This document shows positions 3,229 to 39,905 of a DNA stretch of 43,104 bases, in pieces. The stretch is taken from the NCBI RefSeq assembly GCF_003334385.1, contig NZ_QOWN01000036.1; one strand, written 5' to 3'. The notes under the pieces were generated by a model. The model did no database searches, had not been told where the DNA came from, and was given only the letters and a program-made list of their open reading frames with translations. A program made the translations under genes and the position numbers. Positions within the stretch are counted from its first letter, which is position 1. The number at the start of each line of letters is the position of its first letter. Source of the stretch: Escherichia coli (GTDB lineage: Bacteria > Pseudomonadota > Gammaproteobacteria > Enterobacterales > Enterobacteriaceae).

Positions 3229-4494
3229 TTACGGTTTGAAGTCCAATGGCGCGTTTTTGAACACTTCATATACTGCCTGGCTTGGTGGTTTCGGGATCTT
3301 CGCAAGTTTAGCTGCTGCCAACGCAGCCTGACAAAGTGCGGGATCGCCACCTTCAGGTTTGATATCCAGTAACATACCATCGGGTTCCAGTTTTATGCGC
3401 AGCGTACAGGTTTTGCCTGCATAGGACGATGCGTCATAGAACTTACTTTCGATAGCAGATTTAATCTGCCCGGCATAGTTATTGATATCGGCCCCTGATG
3501 CGCCATTGTTTTTAGTATTACCACTCCCGGCAGGCGAAGCATTGTTCCCTTTCGCCCCTCCCCCCGTTTTCGGTGCATTCTTACCAGAGCTTAGCTCACC
3601 GAAAATATCATCTGCCTCTGCGGCCGCTTTTGCTGCAGCGGCTTTTTCAGCTGCAGCTTTTGCCGCTGCCGCTTTTTTGTCTGCGGCGGCTTTTTCTGCC
3701 GCTGCTTTCTTATCAGCTGCTGCCTTTTCAGCAGCCGCTTTTTCTGCTGCTTTTTTGTCGGCTGCAGCTTTCTCTGCTGCCGCTTTCTTATCAGCTGCAG
3801 CCTTTTCAGCAGCCGCTTTCTTCTCAGCTTCTGCTTTGGCTTTTTCAGCAGCTTCAGTTGCCGCTTTCTTTCTTGCTTCAGCTGCAGCTGCTTCTGCCGC
3901 TTCCGCTTTCTTCTTCAGTGCCGCAGCGGCTGCCTCGGCTTTTTTCTGCGCTTCGGCTGCGGCTTTGGCGGCTTCTGCTTCTGCTTTTTTCTTTGCGTCT
4001 GCAGCCGCTTTCTTCGCTGCTTCTTCCGCAGCTTTAGCATCTGCTTCGGCCTTCGCTTTAGCATCTGCCGCCGCTTTCGCTGCCGCCTCTTCAGCTTGCT
4101 TCTGCTTTAACTCGGCCTGTTTTGCGGCTTCTTCAGCCTGCTTTTTCTGCTCCTGAGCCGCTAACCGCTCTTTCTCAAGTTGCTTCAGGCGTTCCTGTTC
4201 AGCCGCTTGTTTCTCACGCAGTTCTTCAGCAGCCTGCTGTTCCTTCATCTTGCGCTGTTCATCAGAACGCTTCGCGCTTGATTCCTGGCTTTGCATGCGT
4301 TTGTACTGCTCAACTACCGCACCTGAATCAACCATGACAGCGTCGATGGACGAACCTCCGCCGCCTCCGGCTGAAGCTTCTATATTCTCATCGAACGAAC
4401 TCCAGATCAGCGCCGCAAATAAGATGACATGCAGCACTGCTGAAATAATTATCGCCCGCTTGAGCTTGTCGTTTTGTTCGGTTGCCTTTGACAC
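3229..4494 (-). CDS. tolA: Tol-Pal system protein TolA
   Basis: 421-aa ORF: N-terminal TM anchor, long Ala/Lys/Glu-rich helical domain II, C-terminal domain III; recognised as TolA. Confidence 0.95.
   Translation of the reverse strand: MSKATEQNDKLKRAIIISAVLHVILFAALIWSSFDENIEASAGGGGGSSIDAVMVDSGAVVEQYKRMQSQESSAKRSDEQRKMKEQQAAEELREKQAAEQERLKQLEKERLAAQEQKKQAEEAAKQAELKQKQAEEAAAKAAADAKAKAEADAKAAEEAAKKAAADAKKKAEAEAAKAAAEAQKKAEAAAAALKKKAEAAEAAAAEARKKAATEAAEKAKAEAEKKAAAEKAAADKKAAAEKAAADKKAAEKAAAEKAAADKKAAAEKAAADKKAAAAKAAAEKAAAAKAAAEADDIFGELSSGKNAPKTGGGAKGNNASPAGSGNTKNNGASGADINNYAGQIKSAIESKFYDASSYAGKTCTLRIKLEPDGMLLDIKPEGGDPALCQAALAAAKLAKIPKPPSQAVYEVFKNAPLDFKP
3597..4287 (-). repeat. In-frame degenerate tandem repeats encoding TolA domain II
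   Basis: Nucleotide periodicity (gctgc(a/c)gc(t/c)ttt... units) is visible directly, strongest at about 3627-3852 where the protein repeats AAEKAAADKKAAAEKAAADKK. Confidence 0.7.
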
Positions 4495-17905: not shown

Positions 17906-18076
17906 CCGTAGGCCTGATAAGACACGTTAAACGTCACATCAGGCATCGCTTGTCGGATGCGGCGCTAGCGCCTTATCCGACCTACATTGGTGGTCCCGTA
18001 GGCCTGATAAGACGCGTCAGCGTCGCATCAGGCTTCAATTGCCGGAGAAGGCGATAATGCCTTATCCGGTCTACAG
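17906..18076. repeat. REP/BIME cluster in the sucB-sucC spacer
   Basis: Multiple gtaggcctgataagacgcg... and cggatgcggcg... / ccttatccg palindromic units within a 274-bp intergenic gap. Confidence 0.6.
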
Positions 18077-22310: not shown

Positions 22311-22428
22311 CCTGATGCGCTGCGCTTATCAGGCCTACGGGTAATGACTTGTAGGCCGGATAAGGCGTTCACGCCGCATCCGGCACTGGTTGCCTGATGC
22401 GACGCTTGCGCGTCTTATCAGGCCTACG
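22311..22428. repeat. REP/BIME cluster in the sdhB-sucA spacer
   Basis: cctgatgcgctgcgcttatcaggcctacg..., ggccggataaggcgttcacgccgcatccggc... and gcctgatgcgacgcttgcgcgtcttatcaggcctacgg palindromic units. Confidence 0.6.
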
Positions 22429-39775: not shown

Positions 39776-39905
39776 GCCTGATGCGACGCTTGACGCGTCT
39801 TATCAGGCCTACGTATTTCCTGCAATTTATTGAATTTGCACAAATTTGTAGGCTGGATAAGGCGTTCACGCCGCATCCGGCATCTGGGCTCGATTGCCTG
39901 ACGCG
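39776..39905. repeat. REP/BIME (RIP-like) element in the convergent dtpD-phr spacer
   Basis: gcctgatgcgacgcttgacgcgtcttatcaggcctac and tgtaggctggataaggcgttcacgccgcatccggcat palindromes flanking ctgcaatttattgaatttgc. Confidence 0.6.

Follow-up and report, generated by a model that had tools for sequence, protein, structure and literature searches.

Does the Ala/Lys/Glu-rich centre of tolA form a repeat tract whose length changes among Escherichia coli strains, and what would such changes mean for the cell? We addressed this question in a stretch of E. coli DNA of 43,104 nucleotides (the window), using its tolA gene as the reference allele. We conclude, with a probability of roughly 0.93, that the segment corresponds to an in-frame VNTR already known from E. 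coli tolA, of which the window has the modal form, with 13 units. Work from 2012 had described this locus together with its range in nature, its rate of mutation and the associated phenotypes, and nothing essential differs here. The present work makes small additions: a sample drawn from 5,426 genomes, variation in a second repeat at 4017-4081, perfect duplications in natural strains, repeated length changes on identical haplotypes and a test at synonymous sites.

The tolA coding sequence lies at 3229-4494 on the minus strand, begins with a GTG start and encodes 421 aa. Its product, taken from the list of open reading frames, matches two NCBIfam TolA equivalogs over the whole protein, NF007065 at 551.8 bits (cutoff 213) and TIGR02794 at 307.5 bits (cutoff 59.45), as well as PDB chains of full-length TolA and of domain III (structures 1tol, 2x9a, 3qdp and 1s62; E values of 1e-58 to 1e-226). 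The gene is 100% identical to tolA as annotated in E. coli SCU-104; from that of MG1655 it differs at 2 nt, both outside the repeat region; positions 3450-4350 are the K-12 sequence with zero differences. Same-strand open reading frames of fitting sizes flank tolA and identify the locus as the tolQ-tolR-tolA-tolB-pal-cpoB cluster, with ybgC, tolQ and tolR on one side and tolB, pal and cpoB on the other. The names ybgC, tolQ, tolR, tolA and tolB are those given by RefSeq at homologous loci, and a CpoB/ybgF Rfam element is found downstream of tolA.

The membrane anchor of domain I (aa 14-34; 4393-4455, minus) is recognised from the translation by its SHLS motif, as defined in PMC12204202, which reads S18, H22, L29 and S33 within the N-terminal transmembrane helix. 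At the other end of the protein the non-repetitive C-terminal domain III (aa 325-419; 3238-3522, minus) is delimited by Pfam TolA_C PF06519 (E 8e-38) and by solved structures. Between them lies the periplasm-spanning, alpha-helical domain II, characterised by its composition by segment and probably comprising aa 48-310 (3565-4353, minus). Its helical character has been described (PMC10666116, PMC12204202), and a structured helical domain II is needed for outer-membrane stabilisation and for efficient colicin E9 import (PMC10666116).

Some further features of the gene and its surroundings were recorded. In domain III, residue 370 is Glu in place of Ala (GCA to GAA at 3385-3387, base 3386, minus); the residue is Ala in all 16 other full-length TolA alleles compared, and a 61-nt probe centred on base 3386 is found exactly in one of 5,426 complete E. 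coli genomes, that of SCU-104 (NZ_CP053284.1). The 3' end of tolA contains, at 3305-3334 on the minus strand and about 200 nt upstream of tolB, a σ70-like promoter match (TTGTCA, 18 nt, TAAACT); an internal promoter for tolB-pal has been described in this area. Rfam matches at gathering score occur at 1209-1347, 107-275, 207-282, 1-71, 17911-17982 and 39805-39847 on the minus strand and at 22354-22424 on the plus strand; the families are the CpoB/ybgF thermometer between pal and cpoB, an RtT RNA overlapping tRNA-Lys(UUU), a tRNA cut by the start of the window, two naRNA4 (REP-derived) elements and the ES036 sRNA, all of which are ordinary for this region of E. coli.

Domain II is very rich in Ala, Lys and Glu, and for this reason periodicity was assessed against shuffles of whole codons, which keep both composition and frame. 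By this standard the segment 3616/3617-3852 is strongly periodic at lags of 15 nt (z 5.3), 33 nt (z 4.4), 78 nt (z 4.9-5.1) and 111 nt (z 4.9), with a family-wise p <= 0.001 for these lags; the initial annotation had likewise placed the strongest part of the array at 3627-3852. Between 3990 and 4107 a lag of 24 nt is weakly significant (p 0.017). No significant periodicity was seen in the segments 3853-3989 (p 0.53) and 4108-4287 (p 0.98), nor in any of 13 control segments from tolB, tolQ and cydA. The proposal that repeats extend across 3597-4287 therefore holds for 3616-3852 and, weakly, for 3990-4107, and its bounds are too wide. Apart from a local 24-nt repeat, 3853-4107 is Ala/Lys/Glu-rich low-complexity sequence, while 4108-4287 encodes a Gln/Glu/Lys/Arg-rich helix without repeats in which Ala, Lys, Glu and Asp together make up only 58%. 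Tandem Repeats Finder (TRF) agrees with this picture, reporting overlapping arrays at 3617-3837 with periods of 15, 30, 33, 45 and 78 nt and small arrays at 4010-4081 with periods of 12 and 24 nt. One could object that no true repeat exists here, only Ala/Lys/Glu low-complexity composition of stable length, and the outer two thirds of the span first claimed (3853-4287), with little or no periodicity beyond composition, would suit such a view. However, four lags remain significant in 3616-3852 under a composition-keeping null, TRF scores reach 255, and about 30% of the genomes sampled below differ in length, so that we regard this objection as already refuted and scarcely credible.

Read directly in frame, and as delimited by unit decomposition, TRF and the codon-shuffle test, the core tandem array (aa 225-293; 3616-3822, minus) consists of 13 units of 15 or 18 nt encoding K(K)AAA(E/D/A), in the order KKAAAE, KAAAD, KKAAAE, KAAAD, KKAAE, KAAAE, KAAAD, KKAAAE, KAAAD, KKAAAA, KAAAE, KAAAA and KAAAE. 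This corresponds to the 13 imperfect repeats of 15 or 18 bp that Zhou, Michiels and Aertsen described in tolA (2012 PLoS One, PMC3477136). The locus is the same, and so is the 13-unit allele of MG1655 (Zhou, Vanoirbeek, Aertsen and Michiels 2012 Res Microbiol; PMC3477136). Upstream of the core, degenerate repeat units (aa 195-224; 3823-3912, minus) are indicated by natural indels and by their membership of a repeat family (D2); less conserved units upstream of the tract were also noted in PMC3477136, and these units, the natural range and the modal frequency of that study all agree with the present analysis. Within the core, TRF, the search for exact repeats and the synonymous permutation described below converge on a super-repeat of 78 nt, or five units, present in 2.0 copies that are 88% identical (3666-3824, minus), which is also the best-scoring TRF array (score 255). 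It contains the longest exact direct repeats of tolA, one of 20 nt (3800-3819 and 3722-3741) and one of 17 nt (3782-3798 and 3704-3720). A separate two-copy repeat of 24 nt encoding ADAKAKAE (4017-4081, minus), detected by TRF and by the lag-24 test and duplicated once more (+24) in some strains, lies outside the classical tract.

How much of this periodicity belongs to the DNA rather than to the protein was judged by permuting synonymous codons. At lags of 15, 30 and 33 nt the DNA similarity is not above that expected from the periodicity of the protein (p 0.2-0.8), and only the lag of 78 nt exceeds the protein-level expectation (p 0.012-0.017). Given an excess at 78 nt only, we abandoned recent homogenisation of the array as a whole at the DNA level. 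The result suggests instead that the 15-nt periodicity is mainly a protein-level pattern whose synonymous sites have been scrambled, and that the 78-nt duplication is a younger and more recombinogenic layer. The units are only 60-78% identical at the DNA level, which, together with the lack of a synonymous excess at 15, 30 and 33 nt, makes the array a weaker substrate for slippage than classical perfect repeats.

Secondary structure was also considered. Folded as single-stranded DNA the tract is more stable than its shuffles (z -3.3), but its centroid has almost no structure; the signal is accounted for by the palindromes GCTGCAGC and CAGCTG, and hairpins were dropped as a mechanism. Inverted repeats in the tract were likewise rejected, the search having found a single weak pair with 74% complementarity. 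The reverse complement of the tract (3618-3979, plus) contains 9 terminator-like motifs of a hairpin plus T-run, as against 2.8 +/- 1.8 in shuffles; these and the folding stability probably arise incidentally, from GCTGCAGC palindromes that precede the TTT of Lys codons. Two antisense open reading frames on the plus strand, 3482-4156 (224 aa) and 3573-4037 (154 aa), would encode Ala/Phe/Ser-rich or Leu/Pro/Gln-rich low-complexity peptides, and were dismissed as genes since Ala, Lys and Glu codons rarely give stops when reverse-complemented.

Length variation was surveyed in two systematic samples spread across a ranking of all 5,426 complete E. coli genomes, with the whole of tolA and positions 3450-4350 as queries; the census comprises the 116 full-coverage rows sampled. 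The length found in the window occurs in 81 of these 116 rows (70%). Altogether the sampled genomes fall into 16 length classes, from 1185 to 1311 nt (TolA of 394-436 aa), and the 15 other than that of the window have net differences of -81, -63, -51, -45, -42, -33, -15, -6, -3, +9, +24, +30, +33, +39 and +45 nt, every one a multiple of 3. Seventeen alleles were fetched, of which 16, including that of MG1655, are full-length and annotated as intact tolA. In protein and DNA alignments all indels fall within 3663-3912, with the exception of a +24 at 4065/4066 in strain GPEC606, a perfect tandem duplication inside the 24-nt repeat. Several affect the degenerate upstream zone, namely -42 (3871-3912), -6 (3886-3891), +39 (at 3852/3853), -81 (3790-3870) and -48 (3811-3858). 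Domains I and III show no change of length in the aligned alleles (13 alleles in the case of domain III). Thus the segment has both the periodicity and the strain-to-strain length variation, in frame and placed in the repeat tract, that had been predicted for it.

Repetitive regions are prone to misassembly, and the variation might be an artefact of this kind. One allele does look like one: in NIPH17_0036 (NZ_AP024561.1; positions 1357-2498 of the fetched locus, L018) tolA is annotated as a frameshifted pseudogene, and dozens of indels of 1-14 nt, along with substitutions, crowd gene nucleotides ~340-1010 while the flanks are perfect. We considered whether this could be a genuine tolA, disrupted or recombinant, and rejected the idea: so many small, random indels enclosed by perfect flanks resemble unpolished long-read sequence and are probably assembly noise. 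All other variants, in contrast, are in frame, and their flanks and units are otherwise those of known haplotypes. Independent assemblies also share lengths: -63 occurs in two E2348/69-type records, -81 in three records, and +45 in at least nine, or ten if S22EC is included. Sizing of 234 isolates by PCR gave the same range (PMC3477136). An assembly artefact is therefore a most improbable source of the variation as a whole. The genome search also returned two tolA matches on plasmid-labelled records and a few genomes with matches in two places, such as the second match in C11 (NZ_CP010133.1); such cases may reflect duplication, a single match split in two, or pieces of chromosome deposited as plasmids.

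The alleles themselves carry traces of how they arose. Each of the +24, +30, +33 and +39 insertions is a perfect tandem copy of the adjoining sequence, the mark of a recent expansion, and at clean single-gap deletions the two flanks share 5-12 nt of exact homology. The MG1655 haplotype carries five different indel alleles (+30, -33, -45, +39 and -42) with 0-1 substitutions across the whole gene. Similarly, tolA genes of 1185, 1215 and 1275 nt share the haplotype of O157:H7 strains with 0 substitutions and differ by pure indels of 30 and 60 nt (O157:H7 611, Z869 and strain 7386Nal). Since the indel alleles sit on nearly identical SNP haplotypes, length changes are recent and recur independently, in tolA at least as fast as point substitutions. 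In the 1185/1215/1275 nt series repeat number has changed alone within tolA, including between two O157:H7 strains.

Contraction and duplication of this sort agree with the mechanism first proposed for the segment, slippage or recombination between repeats. Misaligned units delete or duplicate whole codons, through what is on published evidence mostly RecA-dependent recombination plus a RecA-independent remainder. In clonal MG1655 a stop-codon reversion assay gave a contraction rate of 6.9e-5. A recA background lowered this rate to 15%, uvrD raised it 3.3-fold and mutS had no effect; a '5-TR deletion' was the commonest event, and some of the deletions extended into the degenerate upstream units (PMC3477136). 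The five indel alleles on the MG1655 haplotype lend this clonal instability indirect support. The 20- and 17-nt exact repeats of the window are spaced exactly 78 nt, or five units, apart and so explain the bias of the assay towards that event. For deletions with only 5-12 nt of exact homology, slipped-strand mispairing rather than RecA-mediated exchange is the probable route. Laboratory expansions were seen in 0 of 150 colonies (PMC3477136). The outcome is a shorter or longer helical, periplasm-spanning segment of TolA, with domains I and III unchanged; if the segment is one continuous helix, its reach would change by some 7.5 Angstrom per 5-residue unit.

Whether these changes matter to the cell is a separate question. 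The tract may simply be a mutational hot spot in a length-tolerant spacer, where TolA needs a helical rod of roughly the right length, small in-frame changes drift and the polymorphism is neutral or nearly so. Constructed variants of 6 to 39 units were all expressed and fully rescued the sensitivity to SDS and to plain salt (PMC3477136), as this reading would have it. A single length dominates, both in our sample (~70%) and among the 234 isolates, which ranged from 8 to 16 copies with 13 copies in 66% (PMC3477136); this is what stabilising selection for an optimal length, blurred by mutation, could produce. The scrambling of synonymous sites from unit to unit gives no sign of selection for high instability. 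Other published phenotypes nevertheless argue against strict neutrality. Plating efficiency on deoxycholate climbs with copy number across four orders of magnitude, and plating of the phage fd is 28-43% in every variant of other than 13 units, including one of 8 units that lies within the natural range (PMC3477136). In addition, certain length alleles were met repeatedly among the O157:H7 and O127:H6 (E2348/69) genomes of the sample. On balance we see a neutral hot spot as a real possibility, held at somewhat less than even odds.

A more elaborate proposal is that the tract is a contingency locus which is tuned rather than maximal. Synonymous scrambling would quiet most of the array, the 78-nt super-repeat and a few short exact homologies would channel a limited set of in-frame steps, and bile salts, filamentous phages and group A colicins, selecting in opposing directions, would maintain the natural alleles of 394-436 aa, with length changes outpacing point substitutions. 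One length dominates, and the scrambled synonymous sites speak against selection for maximal instability. We offer the tuned locus tentatively and think it rather unlikely. Whatever the part played by selection, published experiments show copy number to tune deoxycholate tolerance, salt tolerance at low pH (at pH 5 the 6-, 8- and 13-unit variants were best; PMC3477136) and plating of filamentous phage. The initial annotation had suggested that length variants could alter envelope-spanning reach and the import of colicins and phages; for phages the fd results bear this out, whereas an effect of copy number on colicin import, like an adaptive role, is something we only infer.

Classical contingency loci consist of perfect repeats of 1-8 nt that shift the reading frame as an on/off switch and change by RecA-independent slippage. 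The phase-variable surface genes of Neisseria and Haemophilus, with their simple sequence repeats, share with tolA a repeat-mediated, reversible and high-frequency mutation in a gene facing the environment. The tolA tract differs from the classical loci in that its imperfect units of 15/18 nt always stay in frame and tune the length of the protein, and in that its contraction is largely RecA-dependent. A nearer likeness is found in Salmonella enterica, a different species which we compare by description, where TolA alleles of close relatives go with a change in resistance. The TolA proteins of Typhi and Typhimurium reportedly differ in the number of domain II repeats. A passage in PMC6369716, citing Lahiri et al. 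2011, states that the allelic difference between the two alters resistance to detergent and bile. TonB, a homologous force transducer, likewise spans the periplasm with a domain II of short repeats (Glu-Pro / Lys-Pro), and the two domains are partly interchangeable (PMC10666116). Their sequences are however unrelated, and domain II forms a polyproline II helix in TonB as opposed to an alpha-helix in TolA.

Variation of the tolA repeat is by now cited as established (PMC8583887, PMC12505904), and the tract is of practical use as a marker for typing, besides being known to cause problems in assembly. Its length could be of help in subtyping. TolA links the TolQR motor of the inner membrane with the outer membrane and serves phages and colicins as a route of entry. 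A rod of changeable length gives E. coli heritable variation in bile tolerance and in susceptibility to phage.
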